From contig CAWKFY010000017.1 in NCBI GenBank assembly GCA_963848815.1, positions 13,852-77,851 of the forward strand: a stretch of DNA of 64,000 nt, in the 5' to 3' direction. The stretch's first letter is position 1; each line of letters opens with the position of its first letter. The position numbers and the translations under genes are program-made. Positions 20,538 to 49,836 of the stretch are shown piece by piece. Origin of the DNA: an uncultured Chloroflexia bacterium. Its GTDB lineage: Bacteria; Chloroflexota; Dehalococcoidia; GIF9; UBA5629. The notes under the pieces are model-generated. The model was not told the DNA's origin and ran no database searches. It saw only the letters and a list, made by a program, of their open reading frames with translations.

Positions 20538-20576
20538 CTACTTGGCTATCTTCCAGGTCGTGTCCTTGGGAGTGTC
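20538..20576 (-). repeat. Displaced, diverged copy of the cysS 3' end (13 codons)
   Basis: Reads GAC ACT CCC AAG GAC ACG ACC TGG AAG ATA GCC AAG TAG (DTPKDTTWKIAK*), versus cysS 26399-26437 GAC ACG CCC AAA GGG ACG ACC TGG AAG ATA TCG CAC TGA ([12 protein letters not shown]). 26/30 identical over the first 10 codons, including a 15-nt exact match, and the stop is at the same position. Confidence 0.82.
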
Positions 20577-20578
20577 AA

Positions 20579-21370
20579 TTATTCACCACGCCACTGCGGT
20601 TCTCTTTTCTCCAACCAGGCAACGGGGCCCTCCAATACATCAGGTGTCGTATAGTTAATAAGCATAGCCATCTCAGTCAACTCAAGATTAATATTCCTGA
20701 ACATATCCATTCCCCTCCACAACAAACGCTTGGCAAACTGCGTTGCCACAGGAGCCTGAGTAAATTGCCTGCAATATTCTTTCGCTGCAGATAAAAACTC
20801 ATCGTCGGGGAACACCTTACTCACATAGCCTATTTTTAAAGCTTCCTCAGCATCAATCATTTTACCCGACCATATTAGCTCTAGAGCTTTAGCAGTGCCC
20901 ACTATACGGGGTAAAAAATAACAACCGGCATCACCGGGAAGGAGACCCATTCGTACATAGGTCATGCCCACCCTGGCTTTGTCTGACATTATTCTCATAT
21001 CCGCCATACTTGCCATATCCATACCGGCGCCGGCAGCCGGGCCGTTTATTGCGGCGATGTAAGGTTTATCCAGACTTTCTATAGCACGTGGTATCCTGTG
21101 TACAGTCATACGAAAGTAGTTACGCATCGAATAAAGCGCCGGCACTTCTTTGCGGCTGGAAACAGCCTTGATATCCATTCCAGAACAAAACCCTTTACCT
21201 GCTCCAGTTACAATTACAACTCTGACTTTCGGATCGGTCTTTGCCAATTCAATTGCGTCAACCCACTCGTCGAGCATGGTATCATTGAACGCATTGAGAG
21301 TCTCAGGGCGATTAAGAGTGATGGTGGCGATATAATCCTCAACTGTATATATAATATCCTTGTATGACAT
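20579..21370 (-). CDS. Enoyl-CoA hydratase/isomerase family protein
   Basis: ITLNRPE..NAF, TGAGKGFCSGMD, KPYIAAINGPAAGAG, GLLPGDAG. Confidence 0.92.
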   Translation of the reverse strand: MSYKDIIYTVEDYIATITLNRPETLNAFNDTMLDEWVDAIELAKTDPKVRVVIVTGAGKGFCSGMDIKAVSSRKEVPALYSMRNYFRMTVHRIPRAIESLDKPYIAAINGPAAGAGMDMASMADMRIMSDKARVGMTYVRMGLLPGDAGCYFLPRIVGTAKALELIWSGKMIDAEEALKIGYVSKVFPDDEFLSAAKEYCRQFTQAPVATQFAKRLLWRGMDMFRNINLELTEMAMLINYTTPDVLEGPVAWLEKREPQWRGE

Positions 21371-21456
21371 AATTCTCTCCTTTTACTTTATCGATCCACG
21401 TTTATCACGAAATTACTCCGGACATCGGCCAAAAATTTTACTGTGAAGATACCGAG

Positions 21457-22320
21457 CTACGACAGCCCCAATAATCCGGCCGGATTCACTTTTACCATTA
21501 ATTCGACTTCGCTTTCCGTCATGCCGTACTTAAGCATGGTTGCAATGAACATCCGCATGCCCTCGGGGGGTGGCGGATTATCGTTTTGTCCGAAATCTGT
21601 GCTCATTATGCAATGCTCAGCACCGATCAGCTTCATAGCCTGTACCATTTGTGCCGGATCACGCCGTCCTCCACTGGATACAATTTCCAGAAAACAATGC
21701 TCAATTACAGCCCCTTCTTTGACCAGTTTAACCTGATCCTCTACTGTCAAGGACTTATCAAGCCCATGAGAACACATAGCATGAGTTATGACTATCTTCG
21801 TTAATCCTGCCTGTTTAGCCTCTGTAACCAGTGTGAAAATCTCAGCCGGAGCGAGATGGCCGGTAGCCAGGACCATATCATGCTTTTTAATGACAGGGAA
21901 TATCTGTCTTACGGTTGCCTTATTCTCCTCTTCGAGGATATTGAAACCTTTTTCTTTAAAATCAACACCTAACAGCCTGGTTAAGGCCAGCCTGGTATTT
22001 TGGGCAGAGAAGGTGGGCATCCAGATTACCCTTGCGCCCAGTTCTCCGGCCGCTTCCACAACCGGGACATTTATACCACCAGTTTCATACTCAAGACAGA
22101 GACTTCCATAGGTTGATATACCGGGAACCGCCTGATTAACAATGTAGGACATTGGAGCAGTTAGATAACTGTGGCTTTTAAACACAATGCCTCCCATGCC
22201 GTATTCCCTGGCCAACCTGGCCACCTGCAAAGCATCCATGCGTCGTTCAATGAGAACGTCCGGCCCGGCGTGAACATGAAAGTCAATAGATCCTTGCAAC
22301 AGTTGGTCTGCTCTACTCAT
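21457..22320 (-). CDS. DUF6282 family metal-dependent TIM-barrel protein (amidohydrolase-like)
   Basis: DFHVHAGPD, VFKSH, WMPTFSA, LATGHL, VITH, STDFGQ, NPAGLLG. Confidence 0.8.
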   Translation of the reverse strand: MSRADQLLQGSIDFHVHAGPDVLIERRMDALQVARLAREYGMGGIVFKSHSYLTAPMSYIVNQAVPGISTYGSLCLEYETGGINVPVVEAAGELGARVIWMPTFSAQNTRLALTRLLGVDFKEKGFNILEEENKATVRQIFPVIKKHDMVLATGHLAPAEIFTLVTEAKQAGLTKIVITHAMCSHGLDKSLTVEDQVKLVKEGAVIEHCFLEIVSSGGRRDPAQMVQAMKLIGAEHCIMSTDFGQNDNPPPPEGMRMFIATMLKYGMTESEVELMVKVNPAGLLGLS

Positions 22321-22364
22321 TTATCACGTCCTATCCTTGACGCTATAGGAACGCTCATATTTTC

Positions 22365-23969
22365 CTACCGCTGCAGCATATAACCGCTGGCTTCTCTATC
22401 CCACGCATTTCCAATACCTTCCTTCCTGAGGATCTCTTTCTGTATTTTATCCGTGCCCTTTGTTCTTGGAAATTCTTTGACAAACTCTACGAATCTCGGG
22501 ATCATAAATCGTGCCAGCTTGGTTTGCAGATAATCCAGCAACTCCTCAGGATTCATGCTCTGCCCATCATGTAATCGCACCATTATCTTGGTCTCTGTTA
22601 TCTTACCTAACTGCACACCGATCAGAGCCGTCTCAACAATCTTCGGATTCTGTATGCAGGCAGCTTCTACTACCTCCACAGGTATCCACTCCCCTTTAAC
22701 ATTTATACTATCGGCGAGACGTTGTTCGAATAGAAGATTCCCATCTTCATCAAACCTGCCGGCATCACCCGTGTGAAACCATCCATTATTGAAAGCCTGT
22801 TTGTTTTTATCCGGCATGTTGTAATAGCCGTCAAATATTACATGGGGTTCCTTGCCCCGGACGATTATCTCGCCCACCTCATTGACAGCTTTTTCTTTAT
22901 CGTTTTCATCCACAACCTTTATCTCTACATAGTCCACAGGTTTGCCACAGAACTTTATCAACATTTCACCTAGATGGTCCATCTTCCTGGGTATCGGCAG
23001 ATAATGCCTATGCATGACCACGAAACCCGGAAGCTCCGTCGACCCGTAACCACTTCCTCCTACAGGTATCTTGAAACGTTCCATAACGGTACGCACCGCC
23101 GCCACAGGTATCATTCTAACCCTGTGCTGAGTTTCCTCAGGTGTAACGGGTTGTGCCAGCTGATAGATTATCGGCGCTGAATGAAGCACGAGTAACGTGG
23201 CTCTATACTTTACCACCTGTTTCCAGAATTGCGACGCGCTGTATTTCTCGACGATGACCACACTGCCGTTGCCGGCCAGAGTATTCATAAGAAAGTAGGT
23301 CTGAGGATTGATATGAAATAAGGGCAGGGGGTCAAATGAAATGTCGGTGTAATTGGTCATAGACCATTCCCTTAAATATTCACCCGAGGTAAGATAGGCC
23401 TTATGACTCAACATCGCCCACTTCGGAGCACCTGTGGTCCCCGCTGTGTGTATAAAGCCCATCGGTTCCCCATTGTCGATTTCTATTAATGGAGGCGCCG
23501 AAGGGGAAGCATTGGAGAAGATCTGATCAAAACCGATTACCTGCTGTGAATCAATCCCCTCAGAATCAGGCATGCAAATCACATGTTTGATCTCAGGCAA
23601 GGATTTGCTGACCTGAGCATAATTTCCCCATCTGTCATTATTGATAATAACGAATTCTGCGTCAGCCTGGCTGAGCAGATATTGAAGGCTTTCTCCCTTA
23701 AAATCTACATTTACGAATAAGCTGATCGCTCCCAATTTCGCTAAACCAAACCAGCAATAAAGGAACTCGGGACAATTTGTCATAACTATGGCAACCTTCG
23801 TCCCTTTCCTCACACCGAGATCGTATAGAGCGTTAGCCACCTTGTTTGCACTGGCGTCGACCTGCCCGTAGGAATACATTTCGTCCCGAAACCAGATGCA
23901 GGGTAAGTCCTTACCCAAATCAACTTTTTCTTCAAACCATTGCCTGAAATTAATTTTTGGTATATTCAT
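22365..23969 (-). CDS. Acyl-CoA ligase (CaiC/crotonobetaine-CoA ligase-like AMP-binding protein)
   Basis: HTAGTTGAPK AMP-binding loop, PLFHIN, YGSTE, GWFHTGD, KGTDKIQK. Confidence 0.9.
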   Translation of the reverse strand: MNIPKINFRQWFEEKVDLGKDLPCIWFRDEMYSYGQVDASANKVANALYDLGVRKGTKVAIVMTNCPEFLYCWFGLAKLGAISLFVNVDFKGESLQYLLSQADAEFVIINNDRWGNYAQVSKSLPEIKHVICMPDSEGIDSQQVIGFDQIFSNASPSAPPLIEIDNGEPMGFIHTAGTTGAPKWAMLSHKAYLTSGEYLREWSMTNYTDISFDPLPLFHINPQTYFLMNTLAGNGSVVIVEKYSASQFWKQVVKYRATLLVLHSAPIIYQLAQPVTPEETQHRVRMIPVAAVRTVMERFKIPVGGSGYGSTELPGFVVMHRHYLPIPRKMDHLGEMLIKFCGKPVDYVEIKVVDENDKEKAVNEVGEIIVRGKEPHVIFDGYYNMPDKNKQAFNNGWFHTGDAGRFDEDGNLLFEQRLADSINVKGEWIPVEVVEAACIQNPKIVETALIGVQLGKITETKIMVRLHDGQSMNPEELLDYLQTKLARFMIPRFVEFVKEFPRTKGTDKIQKEILRKEGIGNAWDREASGYMLQR

Positions 23970-24066
23970 TTTAAATTCTCATAACGCTTGATATCTATTT
24001 TCTCTGAGAAATATCCTTCAGTATTCCTTCACATATGTCGGGTATTAAAGGAACCTTCCGTCAATG

Positions 24067-25188
24067 TTAAAATCCCTGTAACATCATTACCTGGCTAGCG
24101 ATATTGTTCAACATAATCTCCGAGGTTCCCCCGCCTACCTGCATAGCCTTAACCCCCAGCAAGAATCGTTCGTACATTGTGCCGCGATAGCATGCATGAC
24201 TGCCGACCAGTGAAAAACACTTGTTGGCAATTTTTTCGGCTGCTTCACCTGCAAGGTACTTTGCTACTGCTGTTTCCAAAATATGCTCAATACCATTGTC
24301 TTCCATCCAGGCGGCGCGGTCTCTGGCCAGCTTAGCAGCTTCCAGGTTGGCATATAACTCAGCAATCGTCCACTTGATGCCCTGAAAATCTGTCACATGG
24401 CGGCTGCCGACTACCCTTTCTTTGGCATATTTGACGGCACGGTCCAGGCATCCACGCCCTATACCGATGAATTGAGAGGCATTGCCTATTCTGCTCAAAT
24501 TGAAAGTTTGCAGGAAAATATCCAGTGCGCCACCTTCCCTGCCCAATATCTGGGTTTTGGGGATACGACAATCCAAATAAATGTCATACATTGGCGCCGT
24601 TCGGCCTGCCATGCCCTCGGCCTTAACAAATTTCACACCATCGCTGTCTTTATCAATAAGAAACTCGGTTAGCCCTGACTCGGTCTTCGTTAGCAGAATA
24701 AAAACGCCTGCTTCCTTTGCTAAGTTGATATGCTTCTTATGGCCTTTGATCACATAGTATTCACCATCTTTGACAGCTATGGTTTCCAAATTTTTGAAGC
24801 TCGACCCCGCATTGGGCTCGGAGATCGCCTGGGCGGAGGTAAATTCACCATTTGCCAGCCGTGGCAAATATCTTTTTTTCTGCTCCTCGGTACCGGCAAC
24901 AAGAATAGATTTCTCCGCCTGAACATTGGTTTGAGGCGATAGCAAACCTTCCTTGGTCAATTCCTCAATGATAATAGCGTATTCCATGGCGCCCTTTCCC
25001 ATGCCACCATATTCCAGCGGCACGATAGGGCCTGTCCAGCATTTCTGACCCATGCTTAAAAAAAGATCTTCCGGGAAAATACCTTCCTCTTCTTCGCATT
25101 CTCGTTGCGGCTTGGTAGACTCTGCTCTGGCAAATTCAGCAACTTCGTTTTTCAGCTCCAGTTGTTCTTTTGTGTATTCGAAATTCAT
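24067..25188 (-). CDS. Acyl-CoA dehydrogenase
   Basis: VPLEYGG.G, AISEPNAGS, IKGHK..I, SRIGNASQ.IG, DFQGIKW, GGTSEIM. Confidence 0.92.
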   Translation of the reverse strand: MNFEYTKEQLELKNEVAEFARAESTKPQRECEEEEGIFPEDLFLSMGQKCWTGPIVPLEYGGMGKGAMEYAIIIEELTKEGLLSPQTNVQAEKSILVAGTEEQKKRYLPRLANGEFTSAQAISEPNAGSSFKNLETIAVKDGEYYVIKGHKKHINLAKEAGVFILLTKTESGLTEFLIDKDSDGVKFVKAEGMAGRTAPMYDIYLDCRIPKTQILGREGGALDIFLQTFNLSRIGNASQFIGIGRGCLDRAVKYAKERVVGSRHVTDFQGIKWTIAELYANLEAAKLARDRAAWMEDNGIEHILETAVAKYLAGEAAEKIANKCFSLVGSHACYRGTMYERFLLGVKAMQVGGGTSEIMLNNIASQVMMLQGF

Positions 25189-25441
25189 GTATTTCCTCCA
25201 CTAATTTATTTCCATCTCGAACTTCGGATTATGCAGCCGATCTACCCTATCGTCAACATAACTCCCGCGTGTATTGAGAAGGTGAGGCTAGAAGGAATAG
25301 TTTTATGTATATTACCATTCAAAACATCTATGTCAATATTTTTTACATTTTTATTAACTATTTTTATTGTTTTGATTTTATAGTTATCAATATTGTCCAA
25401 TATATTTACAATATTTGGAATATATGATATCAATATTGACC

Positions 25442-26353
25442 ATGGGACAACTGGATGATATCGATAAAAAAATAATCGGCGTGCTAAGAACAAATGCTTA
25501 CATGAGCAGTATCGAGATGTCAAAACATATCGATATTTGCGCTTCAACCATCCGTCGCCGGGTAAATAAGCTCATAAAAAATGATGTCATACGTATACAG
25601 GCTGTTCAAATAAATCGCGTAAGAACATCTCTGACAGTTGGTATTCTGCTTAAAGTAGAAAACAGTGCAATCAGCCGGACGGCTGATCTATTAGCTGGCC
25701 AGAAGGAAGTAGGATTTATAACGTTGATCACGGGCTACTATAATATAGCCTGCCTTTGCTGGTTTGCATCTGTTCAATCATATTCCCGATTCCTAAACAC
25801 AATACTTTATCCCATGCAGGATGTGCTGGATACAGATACCTTAATTTGCACTAAATATGTTAAACACGCATCAATTAGACTCGATGATACGGTTGATTTA
25901 ACTGAACCGGCTAACAAAAAAGTCGACGATATCGATATGAAAATTATTGAAGAGCTCGAAAAAGATGCTCGTCAAAGCATGACAAGGCTGGCAAAGAACC
26001 TCAATATTAGCGCTCCTACTATCAAACGCAGAATAAAAGCACTATTAGACAATAACATTATCCGAATACTGGCTATACCCAACCTATGCACCGGAAAAAC
26101 AGTCGTGGTTTCCATAGCGCTGAAGGTCGAAAATAGCGCACTCAATAACATTGTAGACCGGCTATGCGATTTCGATGAAGTGCGGCAGGTTTTGTTGTTA
26201 TCAGGCACTTATGATATAAGTGTCTGGGCATGGTTTGAATCTATTGAAACCTTCTCGAAGTTCTTACAGAATGTTATTAATCCTCTGGAGGGAGTAGAAA
26301 AAAAGCTAGTTGCCATCCAAACTGAATTTAGGAAATGGACACACCAGCATTAA
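25442..26353 (+). CDS. Lrp/AsnC family regulator with tandem duplicated HTH-AsnC modules
   Basis: Two repeats: LDDIDKKII..L..NA...RRRVNKL and VDDIDMKIIEELEKDARQS...KRRIKAL, each followed by a ITGYYNI/LSGTYDI regulatory domain. Start placed at ATG 25442. Confidence 0.88.
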   Translation: MGQLDDIDKKIIGVLRTNAYMSSIEMSKHIDICASTIRRRVNKLIKNDVIRIQAVQINRVRTSLTVGILLKVENSAISRTADLLAGQKEVGFITLITGYYNIACLCWFASVQSYSRFLNTILYPMQDVLDTDTLICTKYVKHASIRLDDTVDLTEPANKKVDDIDMKIIEELEKDARQSMTRLAKNLNISAPTIKRRIKALLDNNIIRILAIPNLCTGKTVVVSIALKVENSALNNIVDRLCDFDEVRQVLLLSGTYDISVWAWFESIETFSKFLQNVINPLEGVEKKLVAIQTEFRKWTHQH

Positions 26354-26398
26354 CCATCGTATTCTGTTATGGCTATGTCCTGATATCAAAGGCTTCAA

Positions 26399-27761
26399 TC
26401 AGTGCGATATCTTCCAGGTCGTCCCTTTGGGCGTGTCCTCAATAGCTATCCCCATCTTGAGCAACTGGTCGCGCACCTCGTCGGCCTGCTTCCACTCTTT
26501 GGCTTTGCGGTACTGGTTGCGCTCGCTCTATCAGCTCCAGGATTTTCTCCTCTTGAGAGTGTTCAAGCTTTCTGGCCTCCTGCAGGGTAAAGCCGATCAC
26601 GCCGGCCAGCTCTTTAAGCATCTGCTGAGCGGGGCCGATGTCCATCCCCTTCTCGCTGCCGCGATTGATCTCACGCACCAGTTCGAACATGGCAGCCACG
26701 GCCTGCGGCGCGCTGAAATCATCGTCCATGGCCTCCATAAAACGCATCCTGTACGGCCCGGCGTCAAGTACTTCGCCGCCCGGCTTACCCTCCGCCTTGA
26801 TAGCCTGCTTCATTCTCTCGATGCCGGTTTCAGCAGCGTCGAGGGCTTCCTCACTATAGCGCAGCGGCATCCTGTAGTAGGAGCTTATGATAAAGAGCCT
26901 GATGGCGTCGGCGCTGTTGCGCTCCAGCGCCTGCTTGATGGTAACCAGGTTGCCCAGCGATTTGCTCATCTTGTCCGCGCCGAGCTGCAGAAAGCCGTTG
27001 TGCATCCAGATGCGCACGAAGGGCTCGACTCCGGTGAAACATTCCGACTGGGCCATTTCGTTCTCATGGTGCGGGAATACCAGGTCCTGTCCGCCGCCGT
27101 GAATATCCAGCGTTTTGCCCAGATGCTTGATGGACATGGCCGTGCATTCGATATGCCAGCCCGGACGGCCTTCGCCCCAGGGGCTGGGCCAGGCCGGCTC
27201 GCCCGGCTTGGCCGCTTTCCAGAGCGCAAAGTCCAGGGGGTCTTCTTTTTTCTCAGTCTCGGAAGTTTCGGTGACCCGCATGTCGTCCGCAGTCTGGTGC
27301 GTCAACTTTCCATAGCCGGGGAAGCTTTTTACCCGGAAATAAACGCTGCCGTCGTCCACCCGGTAAGCATGTCCCTTATCCACCAGGGTCTGGATGACCT
27401 GGATAATCATGGGTATTTCCTCGGTAGCCCGGGGATAAATCGTCGCCCTCTGGATATTAAGGGCGTCCATATCCGCGAAAAATTCGCCGATATATTTTTC
27501 CACCAGCTCTTTCCAGGGTATATGCCTCTCGTTTGAGCGGTTTATGATCTTATCGTCGATGTCGGTGAAATTCTGCACGTATTTGACCTGGTATCCCCGG
27601 TATTCCAGGTAGCGCCTGATGACGTCGAACGTTATATAGCTCAGCGCGTGGCCGAAATGACAGACATCATATACCGTAACCCCGCAAACATACATCTTAA
27701 CTTCGTTATCTTGGGGAGCAAACTCTTCCTTTTGGCCGGACAGGGTATTGAATATCTTCAT
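26399..27761 (-). CDS. cysS: Cysteine--tRNA ligase; frameshift near 26525
   Basis: [45 protein letters not shown]. The +1 frame continues [21 protein letters not shown]...[13 protein letters not shown]. Confidence 0.95.
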
Positions 27762-27786
27762 GAAACACCTCTAGTTTAGTATATGG

Positions 27787-28933: not shown

Positions 28934-28935
28934 GT

Positions 28936-30336: not shown

Positions 30337-30416
30337 TTTCTTCTTCTATGCTTAAAGACATTCAGCCAGCCAATAATAACAAAAATAGTCGCAATTTGCC
30401 CCGGCCGTGCATCAGT

Positions 30417-30466
30417 GTAAAAAATAAGGGGCAGGGCTGCAGTCTAAAAACTGGCCCCGCCCCCTT
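30417..30466 (-). terminator. Probable intrinsic terminator after clpC
   Basis: Imperfect GC-rich hairpin (AAGGGG..CGGGGC / GCCCTG..CCCCTT) followed by a T-tract on the minus strand. Confidence 0.55.
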
Positions 30467-30495
30467 CAACTCTTATGCGATTCCGGATTTTTACT

Positions 30496-33164: not shown

Positions 33165-33285
33165 CCTCTGGCAGTGGCATATTTTCCCAAGGAATCCCTC
33201 CCTCAGTATCGTCTGCGCTGAAGCGTTTCACTTCCGTGTTCGGGATGGGAACGGGTGGTGCCGCCTCGCTCTAACCACCAGAGGA
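33165..33285 (-). rRNA. rrf: 5S ribosomal RNA (stand-alone)
   Basis: Minus strand TCCTCTGGTGGTTAGAGCGAGG...CCCGTTCCCATCCCGAACACGGAAGTGAAACG...GGGAAAATATGCCACTGCCAGAGG; conserved CCGAAC loop; ends pair as helix I. Confidence 0.97.
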
Positions 33286-33297: not shown

Positions 33298-33325
33298 AGT
33301 TTATAATAAGAGCATATGGTGTCAA
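33298..33325 (-). promoter_or_regulatory. Dedicated promoter for the 5S rRNA gene
   Basis: TTGACA (33320-33325), 16 bp spacer, TAAACT (33298-33303), ending 12 nt before the mature 5S 5' end. Confidence 0.7.
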
Positions 33326-33341
33326 ATAGCGTATGTGTAAT

Positions 33342-34885: not shown

Positions 34886-34915
34886 ATGTGTAATAAAGCA
34901 GTAAATAATCGAGAG

Positions 34916-35959: not shown

Positions 35960-36022
35960 TACAATTTACCCCTCTTTATCAGTATAAATATGTTCATTCA
36001 GCTCTAGGAGAATTGTCAAATA

Positions 36023-36214
36023 TCAAGAAAAGAATCTGGCTTGAGCGGGCTGGCCTTTCTTATAAGGGATGCCCAGGTGTTCATAGGCCAGGCGCGTGGC
36101 CGTGCGTCCCCGGGGGTCCTGTCGAGAAATCCAAGTTGCAGCAAATACGGGTCGTATATGCCTTCGATGGCGTCGGACTCCACTTCCAGCTTGCCCATAG
36201 CTTCGAGTGTAACC
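36023..36214 (-). pseudogene. ruvB: Displaced, diverged ruvB 3'-end fragment with a 108-nt in-frame internal deletion
   Basis: 36053-36100 is identical to 44518-44565 (48 bp) and 36181-36214 is identical to 44755-44788 (34 bp). The segment between has 9 substitutions and 1 indel. ruvB 44647-44754 is absent. Restored C-terminus KKGQPAQARFFS* versus [11 protein letters not shown]. Confidence 0.9.
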
Positions 36215-36218
36215 TCTC

Positions 36219-36888
36219 TCACCGCCACCAGCGTATGTTTTTCCTGGGGATTTCTTTAACGTCTGGCGGTGGTTCCAGGGCCTTTGTCACTTTATGCGCC
36301 ATATAACTGATGGGTTTTGTTAACGGATGCAGAGGTCCGAGCCTTTGTCCGAAACTCTGGGCTGTAAGGTCGGTGTAAAGGCTTAACGTCTGGGCTGCCG
36401 TCAAAAAATCCCAGCAGACGAAAATCTCTTCGGCAATCCCGAAAGGCATGCTTAGAGGTATAAAGCCCCGCGCGTACTCGACAGCCCATACCCCGTTGGT
36501 GAAATTCATGGCGCGCGCCTGGCCCGGACCGACGTAGATGCGGTCACCGGGTTTATAAATCGTCTTCTCGAACTGACCTTCCGCGTAGTACCAGGTCTCT
36601 CCATCAATAACAGTATCCCAGAATCCGGCGAAATGACGTCCGGAATGGCCTTCAGAGCCGATGGGAGTTCCCCAAATCATGATATATTCGGTCAGTGGAA
36701 GCATAGTAGAGCTTCATCTGGATCATCGCGCCTCCGGCGATGCTGTATATCCAGGGCTGCGAGAAATCGAGCACTTTCGGATAGTGGGTTGCAAGAGCAT
36801 TGGCGAAAGCATCGAACATCTGCGGCTTGGGCATACCCAGGCACTCCATAGCGCACTTGTGAACGATATCAGGATCAAATCTGGCCAT
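36219..36888 (-). CDS. ERG2/sigma-1 receptor family protein (C-8 sterol isomerase-like); frameshift near 36697
   Basis: Joining ORF 36652-36897 with ORF 36219-36704 gives W...IAGGAM.QM.LYYASLTEYIMIWGTPIGSEGHSGRH...WAVEYARGFIP.SMPFG, the ERG2/SIGMAR1 signatures including the conserved EY.RG glutamate. Confidence 0.88.
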
Positions 36889-36914
36889 TGGCATCAACCT
36901 CTTTCTCTGGTGAT

Positions 36915-37727
36915 TTATACAACGTCATCGAACGGGCCGAACATCTTTTCCATCGATCCGCTTACGATACGAATAGCGCGGGCGCGGGACACCATTTTCC
37001 CCATGAAAAAGTATCCCAGCCGGTTAGATCTCCCCGCGATGAGACTTGGTCGTTTCCCCAGCGCTTTCAACGCCTCGGTGACCGTCGGCTTTACGTCCAT
37101 CACTTTCACGAACCGCGCCGGCTTCGGCTCGTTGGCATCCCAGCCGGGTGTTTTCGTTGACCCCGCCATGAACCCGAGCACGTCGACCCCATACCGGCCC
37201 AGCTCGTACCAAAGGCTCTCGGCAATAATCAGATTGTAGGCTTTGGTCGCCGCATAGTTGGCGCAATAGGCGGTCCCGTACATCGCCGAAGCAGAAGAAA
37301 GAAAAATGATACCTCCCCGCCTCCGCTCGGCCATCTTTCTGCCGAAGTGATGGGCCAGGATGAGCCCCGCCCGCGTGTTGACGTGCAACTGCTTCACAAG
37401 CTGGTCAACGGAATGATTGAGAAAGGGACGGACTTTTGACAAACCCGCATTATTCACCAGCAGGCCAATCTCCAAAGAGTCGGTAACAGGAGTGATCTCT
37501 TTAAGTATGTCCTCCCGGCTAAGGTCGAGCGCTATTGTCCGGACTTCTACGCCGTAGTCTTTCTTTAGCGCGTCCGCCCTGGCTTTGAGCAAATCAGCGT
37601 TAGTGGCAACTAGAATCGTATTCAGGCCCCGTTCAGCACATTGGCGGGCGAATTCGGCGCCGAGCCCCCGTGAAGCGCCGGTGATCAATGCCCAGGGACC
37701 GTATTTTCTTAAGAAAGAAGATGGCAT
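36915..37727 (-). CDS. SDR family oxidoreductase (17beta-HSD/KAR-like subgroup)
   Basis: YGPWALITGASRGLG, LLVNNAG, SS, YAATKAY catalytic motif. Confidence 0.9.
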   Translation of the reverse strand: MPSSFLRKYGPWALITGASRGLGAEFARQCAERGLNTILVATNADLLKARADALKKDYGVEVRTIALDLSREDILKEITPVTDSLEIGLLVNNAGLSKVRPFLNHSVDQLVKQLHVNTRAGLILAHHFGRKMAERRRGGIIFLSSASAMYGTAYCANYAATKAYNLIIAESLWYELGRYGVDVLGFMAGSTKTPGWDANEPKPARFVKVMDVKPTVTEALKALGKRPSLIAGRSNRLGYFFMGKMVSRARAIRIVSGSMEKMFGPFDDVV

Positions 37728-37992
37728 TTTTACTCTTTAAAAGATTAATACCTGGGGCCTCATAGTATTTAATACTTTTTAGCATGCTTTGTAAACCTCG
37801 TTTCGCTGGGAGGTATAAAAATAGAGAAATGGTAGCGAAAATTATACTTTCATGAGATGCAAGAATTAAGCATATTTAAAACCTTTAGAAAAGTTCTTGC
37901 TTTTATTCGGCACGGTCTAAAACGCTGTATAATGGTCAGAAATCCAACCTTTTCTACTGCAAGCGCCAACAATTCATCGGAGGGTAAGTGGT

Positions 37993-38771
37993 ATGACAGT
38001 TAAAATATGTAGCGCCGCTGAAGCTATATCTGTGATAAAGGATGGCGACCACGTAGCTTCTTATATGTGGTCATATGCGGCACGCCCGGGTATTTATATC
38101 GTGCCCTGGCTGCAAGCACGCCACGAACCTGACCCTGTATATCGAGAATTTCTTGCCCGGTCCGCCGGGCACTGTGGAGATTGGCTTCCCTGATCCCACC
38201 ATGCTTCTTGCCCACGTGAAGAAGATCGTTACACCTTTTCTTGGCGGCCGTTTCATCGGCCGCATCGGGAATAGCGGCAGATTTCATGGGCGATCTTATC
38301 CACAGCGGGAAGCTTGAAACGGAGGTGACTACTCACGGCGTTTTCATGGAGCGTTTGCATGCAGGCGCTATGGGGCTGGGCGGTTTTTATAGCCCGATAG
38401 GTGTAGGGACCATCGTGGCAGCCGGCAAGGAGACAAGAGTTATCGACGGCAAGGAGTATATATTTGAAAAGTCGATCAGCCCTGATGTGGGACTGATCAA
38501 AGCTGCCAAGGCGGACAAACTTGGAAATCTGGTTTACCACGGTTCTGCCCGGGGAGCTAACCCGGTCATCGCAATGGCATCAAAGGTGAATATTGTTGAG
38601 GTTGACGAAATAGTTGAGCCGGGCGAATTGGACCCGGAGCTAATAGTTACCCCGGGAATATACGTGGACTACCTGGTAAAAATACCCGAGGACGATATCG
38701 CAGGCGCCAAGAACCTTAAAGAGCTCGTCAAATTCGGTGTAGCGCTGGTGAATACGAAAGGTGTGAAATGA
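37993..38771 (+). pseudogene. 3-oxoacid CoA-transferase subunit A, three frameshifts
   Basis: Pieces in successive frames: SAAEAISVIKDGD; GTPGYLYRAL; NLTLYIEN; HGVFMERLHAGAMGLGGFYSPIGVGT...KAAKADKLGNL...VTPGIYVD. Shifts near 38070, 38125 and 38270. Confidence 0.75.
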
Positions 38772-39436
38772 AAGAGAGACTGGATGAAATAGTGATGGCA
38801 ATGAGAGCAGCCCGGGAATTGAAGCCCGGAGATTACTGCAACCTCGGCCTCGGCATGCCGCAAATGTGCGCATCCAATGTTCCGGATGGCGTGTACATGT
38901 CCAGGCGGAGAATGGCGTTATCGGTTATGGCCCGCTTGTAACGACCGACAATGTTGATGAAGCTGACGTCGGTCTGATCGATGCCGGAGGAAAATTCTAT
39001 ACTCCTGCTCCCGGCATGTGCTTTTTTGACATGGTTACATCCTTTGCCATGATCCGAAGCGGCCGGCTTATATCAATACTGGGCGGGCTCCAGGTATCCG
39101 AAACTGGCGACCTGGCCATTCACAGCCCAGCGAGCAGACGAGTATCCGCAGATCGGGGGGAGCATGGATTTGGCGTGGGGCGCCAAAGAGGGTCATCGTA
39201 GCAATGACGCATACCAATAAAGATGGGAAACCCAAGCTGGTCAAAAACTTGACCTACCCGCTGACTGCGGCCAAATGCGTTAATTTCATAATTACCGACG
39301 TGGCAGTAATTGAAGTGACAGACCAGGTGGACTTGTCCTTAAGGAGTTTGCCCCCGGATGGACCGTTGATGAGATCAAATCCTTGACAGAGGCCCGTCTC
39401 TCTGTGGCAGCCGATGTTAAGGTGATGGAGCTATAA
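38768..39436 (+). pseudogene. 3-oxoacid CoA-transferase subunit B, four frameshifts
   Basis: MRAARELKPGDYCNLGLGMP; QAENG; LQVSETGDLA; PQIGGSMDLAWGA; VIVAMTH; IITDVAV; LKEFAPGWTVDEI. Shifts near 38895, 39136, 39186 and 39327. Confidence 0.75.
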
Positions 39437-39621
39437 CCACTTTATCGGGCATGTCCCCTCCGTTATGATCAACCCCACGCCACCCCTGGCACGCTGCTCG
39501 TAATGGGATATCATCAGATCGGTGACGTTGCCATAGGGGGCATAACGATACGGTTGCGGATTTTCCTGGAGCCAAGCTTTCCGGGCTCCAACAACCTTGT
39601 ATAATCAGCTTTATTCAGCAT
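39430..39621 (-). pseudogene. N-terminal remnant of an NADH:flavin oxidoreductase (old yellow enzyme family)
   Basis: MLNKADYTRLLEPGKLGSRKIRNRIVMPPM, then a shifted frame GNVTDLMISHYEQRARGGVGLIITEGT; truncated where it meets the CoA-transferase B stop. Confidence 0.8.
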
Positions 39622-39659
39622 CTCAATACTTCCGAAGGCTAATCTCCTGTTCATCTCAT

Positions 39660-40511
39660 CTATGGCAAGCCAGCACCTGGCACTTCGACCCTCAGGCACT
39701 CGACGCGGGATGCTGGCTTGGCCTTGGCTTCCTCCGGAACCGAGCTGTCAGCAGTAAGTATGAATAGCGTGCACCTGTCTGGTCCTCCAAGCATGCATGC
39801 GAACGCTTGCCGGTCCAAATCAATTGCATGAAGTACTTTGCCACCTTCAGTAATCCTTACGACCTGCTGTGTGCTGGGGCTGGCAATCCATACCGTGTTT
39901 TCCGCGTCAAGACATATACCATCCGGCATAGCAGGGGCTGTATTCGCCCAGACATGCCGTCCAGTCAACGAGCCGTCATTTTCTATATTAAATGCGGTCA
40001 GTCTGTTGCCCCAGGTTTCTGCAACGATAAGTGTACTGCCATCAGGTGTAATCACCGAGCCATTGGGGAAACGCATGTCCTCCGCTACGACCTTGGTCGT
40101 TCCATCTGGTTTAACCAGCACCAGGTTGGCTGGGTCAGGATTGAAGCTAACTACCCAGTCCGAGCCGAAGTTGCCGATGTAGGCATCGCCGTTGGAGTTG
40201 ACCACCATGTCATTGCAATGGTAGGTGGCTAAACTGCTCAAGTCTGCAACTTCCACCAGCCCCTGCGGATCCAGCCGCAGTAGACGACGGTCCAGCATTG
40301 ACACGATTAGCAAACGCCCGTCCGGCAGCCACCCCAATCCCGAGGGATGATTGGGAACCTTAGCAACATCCTCCACCTTCCCTTGCATATCAACTTTTAT
40401 CACCTTATTACCGTAAAAATCTGATAACCACAATTTGTTCTCATGCCAGCGCGGCACTTCCCCAAAATATAGACCGTCAATGAGGATCTCTGTTTTCGTC
40501 TGCATACCCAC
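39660..40511 (-). CDS. SMP-30/gluconolactonase/LRE family protein
   Basis: FGEVPRWH, PSGLGW, CNDMVV, FPNGSVITPDG, PDGICLDAE, ACMLGG. Confidence 0.92.
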   Translation of the reverse strand: MGMQTKTEILIDGLYFGEVPRWHENKLWLSDFYGNKVIKVDMQGKVEDVAKVPNHPSGLGWLPDGRLLIVSMLDRRLLRLDPQGLVEVADLSSLATYHCNDMVVNSNGDAYIGNFGSDWVVSFNPDPANLVLVKPDGTTKVVAEDMRFPNGSVITPDGSTLIVAETWGNRLTAFNIENDGSLTGRHVWANTAPAMPDGICLDAENTVWIASPSTQQVVRITEGGKVLHAIDLDRQAFACMLGGPDRCTLFILTADSSVPEEAKAKPASRVECLRVEVPGAGLP

Positions 40512-40899
40512 CTCCTTACGTCACTAGATGTGTTTGTTTTCAACTATAGTACATAATCCTTGAGCTATTAACAATCCACGGTAACATTTTCTCGGATGGC
40601 CCTCTGTGAATCAGTCGGGACGATTTGAACAAACACTATGACCAAATGGTGACTCCTTACCCCTCCAGCATTATTTCAGGTGGAGTTCGACTCTCCCTCA
40701 CTCACTGGAAGACGTCCCAGTACATGATTAAATCAAGTCTCACCTTCGGATTGCAAGTCTGACAACTCAAGTCCTCAAAGCATGCAAAGCATTGACAGCG
40801 CAGCGCTGTTATGAAAAAATACGGCAGCCAACGCTCAACGATTTATGATTTTGATGCCCTTGATTGACGTGTCGCCGATTTGTAGGAGGTTGCCAGAAC

Positions 40900-42927
40900 A
40901 TGAATACCAAGTCGTTTTCTAAGACTCTGATTTCCCTGGTGGTGTTGGCATCATTGCTATTGACGGCACTGGCTGTATTGCCCGGTAGTGCCATGGCAAA
41001 CCTGGCTGCAACCTCGTGGCCCATGTTTCAGCATGACCTGATGCACAGCGGCCGGAGCCAATATATTGGGCCACAGACAAATAACGTTAAGTGGTCTTAT
41101 CAGACCGGCAATATAGTAGGTTCCTCGCCGGCCATCGGCGCGGACGGAACTATATATGTGGGCAGCTATGATAATAATCTTTATGCCATCAATCCTAATG
41201 GCACCAGGAAATGGACATTTCCAACGGGTAATGCTATTTGGGGCGCTCCGGCAATAGGCAGCGACGGCACCATCTATGTGGGCAGCGATGATGACTATAT
41301 TTATGCCATTACGGATAACGTGACTGCGGGTATCCAAAAGTGGCGATTTGGAACGCTCGACCATATTGAGTCCTGCCCGGCTATAGGCGGAGATGGCACC
41401 CTGTATGTCGGCAGTGATGATGGCTATCTTTATGCTATTACGGATAACGGGGCTGCGGGTATTCAGAAGTGGCGATTTGGACCACTGTATAATTCGATTT
41501 CCTCTTCGCCGGCCATCGGCAGCAACGGCACAATATATGTTGGCTCCTGGAACAACTATATTTATGCCATTACGGATAGCGGGACTGCGGGCAATCAGAA
41601 ATGGCGATTCCAAACTGGCGGAGACGTCGTATCTTCGCCGGCCATCGCCAGCGACGGCACCATATACGAGGGGAGCAATGACGCCTATATTTATGCCATT
41701 ACGGATAACGGGACTGCGGGTAATCAGAAATGGCAATTCCAAACGGGCGGCGACGTTCTGTCTTCGCCGGCCATCGGCAGCGACGGCACCATCTATGCAG
41801 GTAGCCTTGACGATTACCTTTATGCCATTAATCCCAACGGTACTCAGAAGTGGTCATACAGGACGGGAGGATTGATTGTGTCTTCGCCGGCCATCGGCAA
41901 CGACGGTACGGTATACGTTCACTCGGAGGACGGCAATCTTTATGCCGTCAGCCCTAATGGCACTCTTATGTGGTCTTATATGACCGGTCAACCCGCCAGA
42001 GGTCCCATGAATTTCGATTCTTCGGCGGCAATCGGCAGCGACGGCACGTTATATATCGGTGCATTTAACGGAAAGGTCTATGCCTTCAAGAGTGCTGCCG
42101 TCGGATCCGCAACAGCCTCTGTCAACACAAGCCTGGGTATTGTTAACTTTAGTACCAGCGCAGGATCAATCTCGGGCCTTGCCAATACGCCTTCGTCAAG
42201 CATGCCGTGTTCAAGCGGAGGATATATCTTCCCCTATGGCATGTTCTCTTATAACATAACCAACCTGGCCCCGGGTGCCACTGCTACCATTACAATTACC
42301 ATTCCTAAGCCATGCCCATGGGCTCAAAGGTATTTAAATGTCAGAACGGCAGCCTGACCGACTTCAGCCAATATGCACAGCAACCAGACCCCAACACCTT
42401 CATACTAACCCTTAAGGACGGCGGACAGGGCGATGCCGACGGCCAGGCTAACGGCACCATCGTCGACCCCTGCGGCCCAGCCTTCCTATTCAGCAATCCG
42501 CCGCAGTCATCCTCGGCGCAGGTTACAATGTTGGCCACAGAATCCAGCAGCCATAGCAAATATCACGGTGCAAAGCGCTTCGCTATCCAATGCAAAAGTC
42601 GCACCCGGCGAACCCGTTACCGTTACAGCAAATATAGCCAATAAAGGTACGGCCAATGGCTCCGCTCAGGTCAAGCTCTATATCAACGGACAGGAAGAGG
42701 CCCATCAGGGCATCACGCTATCCAGCGGCAGCCGGGCACCCATAAAATTCACCGTCAGCCGCAATGAGTCCGGCACCTATTCCGTCTATGTGGGCAGCAT
42801 ACCTGCCGGCACCTTCGAGGTCGACCAGTTCACCGATCCCAACCTTATCCTCTATATCAGCGGCGCATTGATACTCCTGGCACTGGTCGGCGGAGTCATT
42901 TTCATAGCGATGAGAAGGCACCAATAG
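40900..42927 (+). CDS. Surface protein: signal peptide, 8-blade PQQ-like beta-propeller, choice-of-anchor U-like domain, CARDB-like domain and C-terminal TM anchor; frameshifts near 42310 and 42530
   Basis: AGGAGG RBS, WPMFQHD..HSG, eight SSPAIGxDG-type blades; LTLKDGGQGDADGQANGTIVDP in the next frame; then TVTANIANKG... and a hydrophobic tail ending RRHQ*. Confidence 0.82.
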
Positions 42928-42950
42928 CAGTAAAGTTAGTTTAACCAACG

Positions 42951-42981
42951 GCCGCAGCTATAAATGCTGCGGCTTTGTTTT
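42951..42981 (+). terminator. Intrinsic terminator
   Basis: GCCGCAGC-tataaat-GCTGCGGC followed by TTTGTTTT. Confidence 0.8.
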
Positions 42982-43110
42982 GGACACCCATTGGAATAAT
43001 TGATGGGTTTTGTTTAGATATGATATCCTAACAATTAGTTAACATTGTCAATCTGCACAGCAGTATTGCGAGGAAGCAAGGGATATTAAACCTGTATATA
43101 AGGGAGGAAA

Positions 43111-44307
43111 ATGAAAAAACTGTTGTTGGTAATGATCTCAATCTTGATCTTAACGTGCGGATGCATATATATTCCATCAAACCCTACTACAACTACTACT
43201 ACCGCCACACCCGAACAAACGCCGGTGGTAAGTTCGTTCAGCGCCAGCCCGCCGTCCATTGCGTCCGGCGGCAGCTCCACGCTTAGCTGGAGTGTCACGG
43301 GAGCAACAAGCGTCAGCCTGGACAATGGGATAGGAAACGTGGCTGTCAACGGCACGAGGGCGGTAGCGCCTATAGCAAGTACGATATATACTTTAACGGC
43401 TTCCAATTCATCTGGCAGCACTAATGCCACAACGCAGGTACTGGTATCCGGCACAAGCACACCTACGACACCCGCTACTCCATCTGCAACAGAGGCACCC
43501 ACGATCAATTCATTCAGCGCATCTCCCAGCAGCATCTCAGCAGGCGGCTCATCAACTTTGAGCTGGAGCGTAGCCAATGCAACTTCAGTAAACATCCAGC
43601 CAGGGATTGGCAATGTAGCTGCCAACGGGTCCATGGCGATATCGCCGGGAAGCTCAACCGTATATGCGCTTACAGCTACCAACTCAGGCGGCAGTAGTCA
43701 AGCAAGCACCCAAGTGATTGTAGCCTCCAGCACCCCCATAACTCCCGTCACACCCCTATCTCCAGGGATACACCTACTACCAGGGATAGCAGGCCTACTC
43801 ACAACAACTGTATATGATTTTGTAGCCAAAGCGCCAAATGCTTCCTGGGCGAGCGGCGGTGGAAGCCTGACCTTTCCGGGCGGTGACACAGACAATAGTG
43901 GATTTGCACTCTGGCGCAACAACGTCACCTTGGAGGATGACACCGTCTATACGCAGGTACTGGAAACACATCCGCAGTGGATAACCGGCGGCTGGATCGA
44001 GGGGGCTTACACAGAACTTGCCAGCTCGTACACCGTACAATCCAGCGATCATTTCTATTCAAAAGTCGGATTCATTAAAGGCGCCGCTGCCGGGAATGTA
44101 AGATTCAGGGTAATGATACGCACTGATACCGGCAACACCTGGATTGCAGATGTCCCCAAGTTATATAACGGTTCGCTGTCAACAATTGACATTCCTCTTT
44201 CAGCTTATGCGGGGCACAAGGCAGACTTCATTTTGAGAGTTGAAGCCAATAACACCAGCGCCACGCAGGATTGGGCCACCTGGATAGGCACCTCGATTAC
44301 ACGATAG
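43111..44307 (+). CDS. Putative lipoprotein with two Ig/PKD-like repeats and a C-terminal beta-sandwich domain
   Basis: Signal ending LTCGC; two repeats of P.I/V.SFSASP.SI..GGSSTLSWSV..ATSV....GIGNVA.NG...V.P..ST.Y.LTA.NS.G; Thr/Pro linkers; GGAGG RBS. Confidence 0.8.
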   Translation: MKKLLLVMISILILTCGCIYIPSNPTTTTTTATPEQTPVVSSFSASPPSIASGGSSTLSWSVTGATSVSLDNGIGNVAVNGTRAVAPIASTIYTLTASNSSGSTNATTQVLVSGTSTPTTPATPSATEAPTINSFSASPSSISAGGSSTLSWSVANATSVNIQPGIGNVAANGSMAISPGSSTVYALTATNSGGSSQASTQVIVASSTPITPVTPLSPGIHLLPGIAGLLTTTVYDFVAKAPNASWASGGGSLTFPGGDTDNSGFALWRNNVTLEDDTVYTQVLETHPQWITGGWIEGAYTELASSYTVQSSDHFYSKVGFIKGAAAGNVRFRVMIRTDTGNTWIADVPKLYNGSLSTIDIPLSAYAGHKADFILRVEANNTSATQDWATWIGTSITR

Positions 44308-44490
44308 CATCAGAACAAATATTACCCGGGATATCCAAAAAGATGACACTCCGCCTGCGCTAACTGAAATACTACGCAGCGCCTCATTTTCCTTTAGCTG
44401 TTTACTGAGGCTGCCGGCTACTTGTCTACGTGGGCCGTGCTTTAATAATGATACGTTGTCAAGCAATACAACTTATTGTGCGAGATAAAC

Positions 44491-45528
44491 TTAGAAGAGG
44501 CTGCCCTGCGGGGTTGTGCCTTTCTTATAAGGGATGCCCAGGTGTTCATAGGCCAGGCGCGTGGCGGTGCGTCCCCTGGGGGTCCTGTCGAGAAACCCCA
44601 GTTGCAGCAGATACGGCTCGTAGACGCCTTCGATGGTATCGGACTCTTCGCTGATGGACGCCGCTATGGTATCCAGTCCGACCGGGCCGCCTTCGAACTT
44701 TTCAATGATCGTCCTGAGGACCTTGCGGTCTATCTCATCCAGCCCCAGCTTGTCCACTTCCAGCTTGCCCATAGCTTCGAGTGTAACCCTGCTATCCACC
44801 ACCCCGTTGGCCTTGACCTGGGCATAGTCACGGATGCGTTTCAAGAGGCGGTTGGCCACGCGGGGCGTTCCCCTGGCCCGGCAGGCGATCAGCTCGATGC
44901 TTTCCTGATCGATCTTTAATTTAAGTATGGCGGCGGAACGCTTGATGATGGCGCCGATGGATTCAACATCATAAAAATCGAGCCGGTGGACAGAGCCGAA
45001 GCGGTCCCTCAGGGGAGAGCTCATGGCGGCATAACGCGTGGTGGCGCCGATCAGAGTGAAGCGGGGTAAATTTAATCGCAGGCTCCTGGCGCCGGGGCCT
45101 TTGCCCAGGATGATATCCAGGGCATAGTCTTCCATGGCCGGGTAAAGTATCTCTTCTACGATCCTGCTCAGGCGGTGGACCTCGTCGATAAAGAGCACGT
45201 CGCCTTTTTGCAGGTTGGTCAGTATGGCTGCCAGGTCGCCCGGCCGCTCGATGGCAGGGCCGGAGCTGACCTTGATATTCACTCCCATCTCGCCGGCGAT
45301 GATGAAGGCCAGCGTCGTTTTACCCAGGCCGGGAGGCCCGTAAAGCAGGATATGGTCTATGGCCTCGCCGCGCTTCTGGGCAGCCTTAATGCCGATCTCA
45401 AGGTTATCCTTGACCTTCTGCTGGCCGATAAAATCGGCCAGCCGCCTGGGCCTCAGATTGGCATCCAGGGAACTATCCTCCGGGCTAAGCTTGCCCGAGA
45501 CTATTCTGGATGATTCCTCTTCCTGCAT
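44491..45528 (-). CDS. ruvB: Holliday junction branch migration helicase RuvB
   Basis: [56 protein letters not shown]. Confidence 0.98.
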
Positions 45529-49827: not shown

Positions 49828-49836
49828 TTTTTACCC

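Follow-up and report, generated by a model that had tools for sequence, protein, structure and literature searches.

The window analysed here is a stretch of 64,000 nucleotides (nt) from the genome of an uncultured member of the Dehalococcoidia (assembly GCA_963848815.1). Its subject is a pair of cargo-gene blocks lying behind the housekeeping genes cysS and ruvB, each followed by a second, diverged copy of the 3' end of the gene behind which it lies; we refer to these second copies as stubs. The window corresponds to C17:13852-77851 of this genome (G000), a metagenome-assembled genome (MAG) of 2.25 Mb, 46 contigs and 75% completeness. Read along the minus strand, the gene order is rpoC, ruvB, an 8.2-kb cargo, the ruvB stub, a nuclease-like gene, an insertion sequence (IS) and the 5S rRNA gene, and then clpC, radA, ispD, cysS, a 5.8-kb cassette, the cysS stub, a convergent DUF62 gene and gatB (Table 1). 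The loci were compared with five genomes of the same genus (G001-G005, ~84% nucleotide identity to G000) and with two of other genera (G019 and G013). Both blocks are best explained as DNA that was acquired horizontally and inserted at a housekeeping gene's 3' end.

The cysS and ruvB loci

The final 39 nt of cysS (26399-26437) reappear 5.86 kb downstream, with 26 of 30 positions identical in an ungapped core and the same register kept to a TAG stop. As a control for chance, the last 150 nt of cysS were compared with the 10 kb downstream in some 75 further cysS loci. No match exceeded 22/30, and none of these loci had a stub, on which ground we rejected cysS as a widespread attachment site. In G001, G003, G005, G019 and G013 cysS adjoins DUF62 directly, and measured against these empty sites the insertion comprises 20577-26408. 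The cassette is absent from all five same-genus genomes and from G019 and G013. Its GC content is 0.38-0.47 as against 0.51-0.57 in the flanks, and the best match of its DUF6282 protein among 400 genomes of the class is 51% identical, with none from the same family. The stop codon of its last gene, for enoyl-CoA hydratase (ECH; stop at 20579-20581), lies only 2 nt from the stub, and the exact ECH protein has no record elsewhere. At about 37 Dehalococcoidia loci, a limited sampling, no recombinase or conjugation genes were found downstream of cysS.

The two copies of the cysS end differ in their tails. Relatives' cysS genes end in ..TWKIAK-stop followed by a conserved spacer, and the stub has exactly this tail (IAK-stop) and this spacer. 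In the working gene, genus-like sequence continues as far as a 15-nt core that is identical in the two repeats (ACGACCTGGAAGATA, 26408-26422); thereafter comes the 9-nt tail TCGCACTGA, which encodes ..ISH-stop (TGA, 26399-26401); a 1-nt frameshift at ~26520 makes the listed open reading frame end early, at 26439. Since the native tail and spacer are on the stub, the native end has been displaced and the working gene has the end of a newcomer. Furthermore, the left arm of the stub encodes K-D where all relatives have K/R-G, and the left arm of the intact gene is genus-like. These differences, four changes in 15 nt, are suggestive of both copies being chimeric, as they would be after a reciprocal crossover within the core.

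The same operon is found at the same target in other hosts, each of which shares one of its junctions. Contig L060 reads cysS, Lrp, SGL, MFS, acyl-CoA dehydrogenase (ACAD), ligase, DUF6282 and ECH, and so spans the left junction from cysS into the cassette. Contig L059 reads MFS, ACAD, ligase, DUF6282, ECH, a 115-nt spacer and a convergent DUF62, and spans the right junction from the cassette into DUF62; no recombinase was found on either contig. The cassette genes are 81-91% identical to those of G000, whereas the flanks reach 78% (cysS, L060) and 69% (DUF62, L059); in the lineage with the flank at 69%, the cassette is 86-91% identical. Flank identities of 69-78% are those of other genera, and congeners with flanks at 83-88% are without the cassette. 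Because the identity of the cassette far exceeds that of its flanks, transfer between genera is required. Homology between G000 and L059 ends exactly at 20576, 2 nt past the ECH stop, and L167, from a separate project, is 99.9% identical to L059 across the junction with DUF62 and has the same right end. A degenerate pattern describing this right end matched only L167, a second assembly of the L059 organism. On these comparisons the cassette has moved between genera into the same site, without flanking DNA and without an integrase of its own, and it would move as a defined unit with an end shared across genera.

At ruvB, about 200 of the last 313 nt of the gene reappear 8.47 kb downstream at 86-88% identity. 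The stub opens with 36 nt identical to the intact gene (36179-36214, corresponding to 44753-44788), followed by an in-frame deletion of 108 nt, a diverged stretch of 62 nt in which the differences are mostly synonymous or conservative, ~93 nt that are nearly identical and carry G000-specific states in common with the intact gene, and a tail unlike that of any relative; a 1-nt deletion is also present. The site is empty in G001, G003 and G005, where the 5S rRNA gene lies 57 nt from the ruvB stop, and also in G019, and relative to the empty sites the insertion extends over 33312-44495 (11.2 kb). Extra matches to the ruvB C-terminus (90-residue query) occur in 4 of 401 Dehalococcoidia genomes, G000 included, so that ruvB is an uncommon target.

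The intact ruvB gene and the 38-45 nt downstream of it, which are shared with G002, look native. Its tail is like those of G004 (..ATPQGSLF-stop) and G002 (..STPQGSLF-stop), and sliding identity against five relatives showed no recombination break along the gene. Homology of the cargo to contig G018:C237 stops at 44419, and together with the native-type DNA at 44453-44490 this places the proximal junction outside ruvB, at 44420-44452. The distal junction lies within a cargo gene. The ERG2-like product of the window ends in ..NIRWWR-stop, its orthologues in ..NIRWFGKKG-stop and ..NIRWFSGKS-stop; the gene is short by 4-5 codons exactly where the stub begins, with an overlap of TGGT(GG), and its stop is created by the junction. 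On its sequence this junction looks like an illegitimate join, although a later deletion would look alike. The exact junction-bearing ERG2 product has no record elsewhere, and a 35-mer across the stub junction had no match in metagenome contigs.

The ruvB cargo is assembled from pieces that match different places: the CoA-transferase is 85% identical to G002:C9 and the gene of 398 codons 88% identical to G018:C237, and the beta-propeller gene has many paralogues. No second host of the cargo as such was found. The SDR gene and the ERG2/sigma-1-receptor-like gene form a portable two-gene module, 82-87% identical in nucleotides across contigs. In a Dehalococcoidales MAG (GCA_054635415.1; L085 3738-6700) this pair follows dnaN immediately and is bracketed by direct repeats, 26 nt long, of a terminator hairpin. 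Its neighbours differ again in L084 and, judged from the gene table, in a JGI contig.

Between the ruvB stub and native DNA lie a nuclease-like gene and the IS. Homologues of the nuclease-like gene occur in unrelated defence islands, a few of them with PF04471, and not behind ruvB, for which reason it was rejected as a marker of a donor with a ruvB-nuclease arrangement. The IS is bounded by inverted repeats of its own, with TACAC as a likely 5-bp target duplication, sits just upstream of the 5S rRNA promoter and looks like a later, unrelated insertion; it lies outside the cargo proper, and insertion of a transposon or IS does not explain the cargo. Within the genus, the interval from ruvB to the 5S rRNA gene is a hot spot, with a different single defence-type gene in three congeners (G000, G002 and G004). 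In G004 (L032 2539-4493) we identified by eye a TIR-like and a small GIY-YIG-like gene, and in G002 (L035 328-1824) a DUF2971-like gene; neither insert contains a ruvB stub, and these are separate single-gene insertions. An RNA or tRNA gene as the true target was rejected, the 5S rRNA gene being the only such gene present, without any tRNA.

A profile search for tyrosine and serine recombinases (PF00589/PF00239) gave zero matches on the whole contig C17, and none appears among the Pfam matches of the cargo proteins of the two blocks. The first-pass annotation of this DNA had described, at cysS and at ruvB alike, a housekeeping gene followed by cargo and by a diverged copy of its own 3' end, and had suggested a search for empty sites in relatives; the description is borne out by the comparisons above and such sites exist, with G001, G003, G005 and G019 empty at both loci and G013 at cysS, the one of its two sites that was retrieved. 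Its view that the two blocks share one architecture holds in so far as a gene-end stub lies beyond the cargo at both, but they are not clearly of one kind: the proximal ruvB junction is outside the gene, the ruvB stub does not adjoin native DNA, and the ruvB cargo is mosaic. Its statement that neither block encodes an integrase, recombinase or transposase stands for recombinases and has to be qualified by the UPF0236-family IS inside the 11.2-kb insertion. The ERG2-like stop is indeed close to the fragment, as had been noticed; it is, however, a product of the junction. As to which tail is ancestral, the genus-typical end is on the stub at cysS and on the intact gene at ruvB.

The reading frames in the window call for some caution. 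In the interval 45663-53562, rpoC is broken into two open reading frames (46573-49827 and 45663-46472) and rpoB into three (52894-53562, 50387-52723 and 49837-50508), and with the frameshift in cysS these probably reflect indel errors in the G000 assembly. Single-base frameshifts, that of the ruvB stub included, are therefore possibly assembly errors and not biology, and the apparent pseudogenes, namely the CoA-transferase (37993-39386) and the short N-terminus of ERG2, may have the same origin. Upstream of gatB lie two AT-rich direct repeats of 62 nt (17349-17410 and 17870-17931), 74% identical, 521 nt apart and both ending in ..GTCAAGTG, which may be duplicated promoter or operator sequences.

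Table 1. Features at the two loci, in window coordinates
Feature	Position	Strand	Remarks
DUF62 gene (SAM hydroxide adenosyltransferase)	19689..20534	+	convergent with cysS; native cysS neighbour in relatives
Displaced cysS 3' end (stub)	20538..20576	-	..DTPKDTTWKIAK-stop; tail GCCAAGTAG
cysS cassette	20577..26398		5.8 kb, 5 genes by Pfam
Enoyl-CoA hydratase (ECH)	20579-21370	-	cysS cassette
DUF6282 protein	21457-22320	-	cysS cassette
AMP-dependent ligase	22365-23969	-	cysS cassette
Acyl-CoA dehydrogenase	24067-25188	-	cysS cassette
Tandem Lrp/AsnC regulator	25415-26353	+	cysS cassette
Gene-proximal cysS repeat	26399..26437	-	genus-like left arm, 15-nt core, new 9-nt tail
cysS (cysteinyl-tRNA synthetase)	26399..27761	-	from open reading frame and translation; 83-87% nucleotide identity to same-genus cysS
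5S rRNA gene	33166..33282	-	promoter region to ~33335, where native DNA resumes
IS element	33340..34887	-	UPF0236-family transposase 33392-34879 (495 aa); 26-nt imperfect inverted repeats
Nuclease-like gene, 347 aa (Mrr-type, faint), defence-type	34916..35959	-	GC 0.39; without Pfam match
Displaced ruvB 3' stub	~36022..36232	-	different tail, ..QPAQARFFS-stop
ruvB cargo	36233..44452		~8.2 kb, GC ~0.51, mosaic
ERG2-like	36219-36704	-	ruvB cargo
SDR	36915-37727	-	ruvB cargo
CoA-transferase A/B (frameshifted)	37993-39386	+	ruvB cargo
SMP-30/gluconolactonase-like	39660-40511	-	ruvB cargo
PQQ/beta-propeller protein	40864-42357	+	ruvB cargo
CARDB protein	42433-42927	+	ruvB cargo
398-aa secreted repeat protein	43111-44307	+	ruvB cargo
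ruvB downstream stretch common to G002	44453..44490	-	native-type DNA
ruvB	44491..45528	-	intact, genus-like over its whole length; tail ..TTPQGSLF-stop

Displaced gene ends elsewhere in the genome and genus

A scan of the whole G000 genome for orphan copies of gene 3' ends returned cysS, ruvB, guaA, an ACAD gene, tyrA and mutS (with three stubs), that is at least six genes, together with a gltD-like case (C25) that is a candidate only. A lack of further cases, which the first-pass annotation had named as refuting its view, is not observed: they are present in G002 and G004 as well as in G000. The guaA stub consists of 68 + 35 nt with an internal deletion.

At ACAD (C27) the stub measures 30 nt and the cargo is a single aldehyde dehydrogenase (ALDH) gene, for which G005 and G001 have empty sites. 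The stub and the 15-19 nt beyond it constitute the native end, with a TGA stop; the working gene ends in TAA after a 19-nt identical core, and both encode the same QRR-stop. In G002 the same gene is followed by 21 kb of cargo and a stub of at least 131 nt. The ALDH gene, 91% identical in the two genomes, lies downstream of ACAD in G000 (C27:2215-3657) and upstream of the ligase in G002 (L066 6958-8400), so that one gene has been placed at two points of one operon, with module edges tight around the open reading frame. At tyrA (C33) a stub of ~45 nt follows 4 kb of cargo. This stub is genus-like, with an R codon and an AAATAA ending, unlike the final ~42 nt of the working gene; in relatives synteny downstream of tyrA is not conserved, and a clean empty site could not be demonstrated.

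The mutS locus (C13:1546-14300, L076) has three stubs of 66-100 nt and 85-88% identity, at 6.5, 8.7 and 10.2 kb downstream of the gene, and the four tails read KKKAEEERGP-stop, KKRVENGAGP.., KKKAENETG-stop and KKKAGDGG-stop. The stubs divide three cargo blocks that lie ahead of a restriction-modification locus (C5-methyltransferase). Two mutS stubs are present in G002 and one in G004, a complete single-contig genome; in G001 and G005 none was found within the 7-8 kb retrieved downstream of the gene. The gene-proximal mutS cargo of G004 matches the third block of G000 (block C) at 89-90%, which indicates that new blocks are added next to the gene, and from the stacked stubs the order in which the blocks were acquired can be read.

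The repeats at a single gene differ in length, from 30 to at least 131 nt at ACAD and from 53 to 190 nt at mutS, and the left edges vary too. Over all stubs, 116 codons are identical to those of the working gene, 29 differ synonymously and 25 non-synonymously. By our own estimate random change would make about a quarter of the changes synonymous, and since about half of them are, the copies have diverged as working alleles. The resident end is retained downstream of the incoming module at cysS, ACAD and tyrA, and mutS has its array of three. The proposal that this lineage repeatedly gains cargo, each time giving a gene a new end and pushing the old one downstream, is supported by these four genes and less clearly by ruvB, where the intact gene looks native.

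Searches with PF00589 and PF00239 gave zero matches at the cysS, ruvB, guaA, ACAD, tyrA and mutS loci of G000-G005, and no serine recombinase was found anywhere in G002, G003 or G004, three of the five congeners. G000 has non-Xer tyrosine recombinases at C20:55983 and C24:50493. In G001 large serine recombinases (541-547 aa; L081 7846-10254 and L082 7671-10320) occupy two classical sites of islands, beside smpB (presumably ssrA) and where a comM-like gene is truncated. We rejected the serine recombinases of relatives as partners in cis, given that they are sited at smpB/ssrA and the comM-like gene and not at the loci studied here.

Further 3'-end copies lie behind three genes that were named by eye: a copy of 166 nt (88%) 760 nt behind an M16-peptidase-like gene on the contig of the window but outside it (C17:2467-3849), copies of 189 and 125 nt behind a hydrogenase-large-subunit-like gene (C20:124210-125433), and a copy of 330 nt (91%) behind a NUDIX-like gene (C30:49867-50349).

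Origin of the blocks

We give an even chance to the explanation that both blocks were made by gene-end displacement without a recombinase, anchored in homology and carried out by host recombination. Incoming DNA would consist of cargo attached to a copy of the target gene's conserved end, and host functions would recombine it with the resident gene through this short homology. This might happen by a single Campbell-type crossover with a circle that had looped out between the repeat copies, or by a one-sided homologous anchor combined with an illegitimate join, that is by homology-facilitated illegitimate recombination (HFIR). The incoming end would complete the gene, and the resident end would come to lie beyond the cargo and decay there. 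Illegitimate joining would be the likely origin of new cassettes, as at ruvB, and loop-out and re-entry through the repeat the likely route by which established cassettes such as that at cysS spread; the recombination chemistry is one that we infer. This explanation is favoured because many loci are without a recombinase, repeat lengths and edges are variable, the cargo is modular and gene-sized, one junction lies inside a cargo gene, and cysS and ruvB are rarely hit elsewhere. The cargo consists of ordinary metabolic or surface genes. The distal ruvB junction, which cuts a cargo gene, suits illegitimate joining. At cysS, ACAD and tyrA, whatever is visibly foreign in the working gene stays within the repeat; this argues against HFIR with a long anchor and speaks for one reciprocal crossover of a circle with the gene end.

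Several points weigh against displacement by host recombination. The right end of the cysS cassette is fixed, 2 nt past the ECH stop, in G000 and in the lineage with the 69% flank, and a defined end common to different genera suits site-specific or circle-mediated recombination and argues against a random join. The cores of 15 nt at cysS and 19 nt at ACAD are short for recombination of the RecA type and of the size that site-specific recombination would give. A later deletion, one that took an integrase with it, could account for the shortened ERG2 gene, the stub itself having a 108-nt deletion, and in a genome that is 75% complete a recombinase acting in trans could be missed. No donor genome was found. 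Finally, islands of serine recombinases at ssrA, with many derivatives that lack the recombinase, have reportedly been described in this same class.

The main alternative is that the blocks are decayed or satellite site-specific islands, in which the element's own attachment site mimicked the gene end and a tyrosine or large serine recombinase had been deleted or acted in trans from the genome or a helper. We regard this as possible, if on balance somewhat improbable. Direct repeats of the target's 3' end bracket the cargo and the substitute end keeps the gene intact, as such islands would have it; the identical cores are short (36 nt at ruvB, besides those at cysS and ACAD); the K-D left arm of the cysS stub beside the genus-like arm of the intact gene fits a reciprocal crossover in the repeat; the end of the cysS cassette is conserved at the same site in different genera, with no flank DNA carried along; and the foreign part of the working genes stays within the repeat. 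Large serine recombinase islands do exist in the genus (G001), and integrase-less derivatives of integrative elements are an established concept (PMC5704250). If an unlinked recombinase were responsible, the genes listed above would be its targets and the cassettes its satellites. On the other hand, there is not one recombinase gene in at least nine stub-bounded blocks of G000 or in those of G002 and G004, and G002-G004 are without a serine recombinase altogether. Repeat lengths and edges differ at the same gene, some blocks are single genes of 1.5-1.8 kb, and the ruvB junction cuts a cargo gene. Neither an integrase-bearing element nor a further stub was found at the ~75 other cysS loci, and ruvB stubs are nearly absent from 401 genomes. 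It is because of the genome-wide scan and the variable repeat lengths that we weigh a scar of the integrase type lower than displacement by host recombination.

Two further explanations are less likely. The blocks might be ancestral cargo that relatives have lost, or might have arisen by local duplication followed by decay and gene conversion, in either case with no foreign DNA bringing in a gene end. This has some appeal at ruvB, where the stub is closest to G000's own ruvB (92% over 128 nt) and has G000-specific states in common with it, the cargo has genome-like GC and includes genus-native genes, and the spacer towards the 5S rRNA gene is variable across the genus. It is at odds with the cysS cassette, which has a foreign GC content and, among 400 genomes of the class, no homologue of more than 51% identity, yet is 86-91% identical in a lineage with a 69% flank, and which is missing from five same-genus genomes and two other genera. 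The enrichment of synonymous differences in the stubs is not expected from the decay of a duplicate, and the working cysS, ACAD and tyrA genes have tails foreign to the genus; we therefore think ancestral cargo or local duplication quite unlikely. An assembly artefact, in which strains or species were joined as a chimera through short shared sequence so that the stubs stem from a second population, is more unlikely still and, in our judgement, highly improbable. The fragmented and incomplete MAG, the frameshifts in rpoB, rpoC and cysS, the 36 nt with which the ruvB stub opens, identical to the intact gene, and the failure to find the ruvB junction k-mer and the exact junction proteins elsewhere would all fit such a chimera. 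Nevertheless, independent assemblies reproduce both types of cysS junction (L060 for one, L059 and L167 from two projects for the other), the architecture recurs in other assemblies, including G002 and the complete single-contig G004, and the ruvB stub is not contiguous with the path of the intact gene on either side of the 36-mer, by which a simple mis-join in the assembly graph is excluded.

Taken further, the displacement of gene ends by host recombination leads to a broader view, which we put forward tentatively and think rather unlikely to hold in full: that recombinase-free "landing-pad cassettes" occur in Dehalococcoidia and perhaps in further lineages with few classical mobile elements. 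A block with a captured 3' end would loop out between its two copies and reach a different cell; host recombination would then insert it into any genome that possesses the gene, restoring the gene and leaving the old end as a stub. Repeated entry would build dated, layered arrays such as the three mutS stubs. If this were true, it would be a general integrase-independent route of gene gain across genera. Even in the narrower, recombinase-less form, streamlined uncultured bacteria would gain genes without integrases, transposases or conjugation, a copy of a conserved gene end being sufficient. An explanation would then be at hand for the arrival of metabolic operons, among them the acyl-CoA cassette at cysS, in exactly the same place across genera, and software for finding islands that is keyed to integrases would miss a whole class of acquisitions.

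Relation to known systems

Phage 21 and e14 integrate into icd of E. coli, where each element brings in a substitute 3' end that is diverged, for the most part synonymously, displaces the native one and leaves the gene functional. The substitute end and the displaced native end are alike in the present cases; there, however, an integrase is encoded beside the attachment (att) site, and here none is.

In streptococci, integrative and conjugative elements (ICEs), as well as integrative and mobilizable elements (IMEs), have sites at the 3' ends of protein-coding genes, and their decay leaves integrase-less islands between att repeats, the cis-mobilizable elements or CIMEs (PMC5704250). This description fits both blocks of the window, which are without integration or transfer genes, and the tandem accretion of CIMEs at the gene-proximal site is a further likeness (PMC5704250). 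Derivation from an ICE or IME at the same att site, or accretion with one, was not seen: within a limited sampling, no related integrase-bearing element was found at cysS, ruvB, mutS or ACAD. The present cases also differ in that repeat length varies at one gene, some blocks consist of a single metabolic gene, and one junction lies within a cargo gene.

Displacement of gene ends without an integrase is known from rhs loci and from the effector-immunity loci of the type VI secretion system (T6SS) of Vibrio cholerae, where displaced 3' ends are stacked and older ends are orphaned downstream (PMC5361080). In a passage of that source citing Jackson et al. 2009, HFIR, with one anchor and an illegitimate join, is given as the proposed mechanism for the displacement of toxin C-termini (PMC5361080). 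The likeness is that each module, on arrival, provides a new end and shifts the earlier ones downstream, with no integrase involved. The targets described here are, by contrast, single-copy housekeeping genes (cysS, ruvB, mutS, guaA and tyrA) and not toxins subject to diversifying selection, the function encoded by the new end is unchanged, with no new toxin domain, and the cargo is metabolic, surface or defence-related.

Closest in taxonomy are the ssrA islands of Dehalococcoides, reportedly described by McMurdie et al. in 2011, which are said to have large serine recombinases and to stack where a conserved gene ends, between direct repeats of that 3' end. Class, stacking and repeats of the gene end are the same here, and many members of those islands are likewise said to be without a recombinase; the serine recombinases of the relatives studied here, in contrast, are sited only at smpB/ssrA and the comM-like gene, and none at the loci in question. 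Insertion scars with substitute gene ends are thus already known for integrase-bearing elements, and what differs here is the occurrence of the same architecture on single-copy housekeeping genes, at many loci of one small genome and its genus, and with ordinary cargo.

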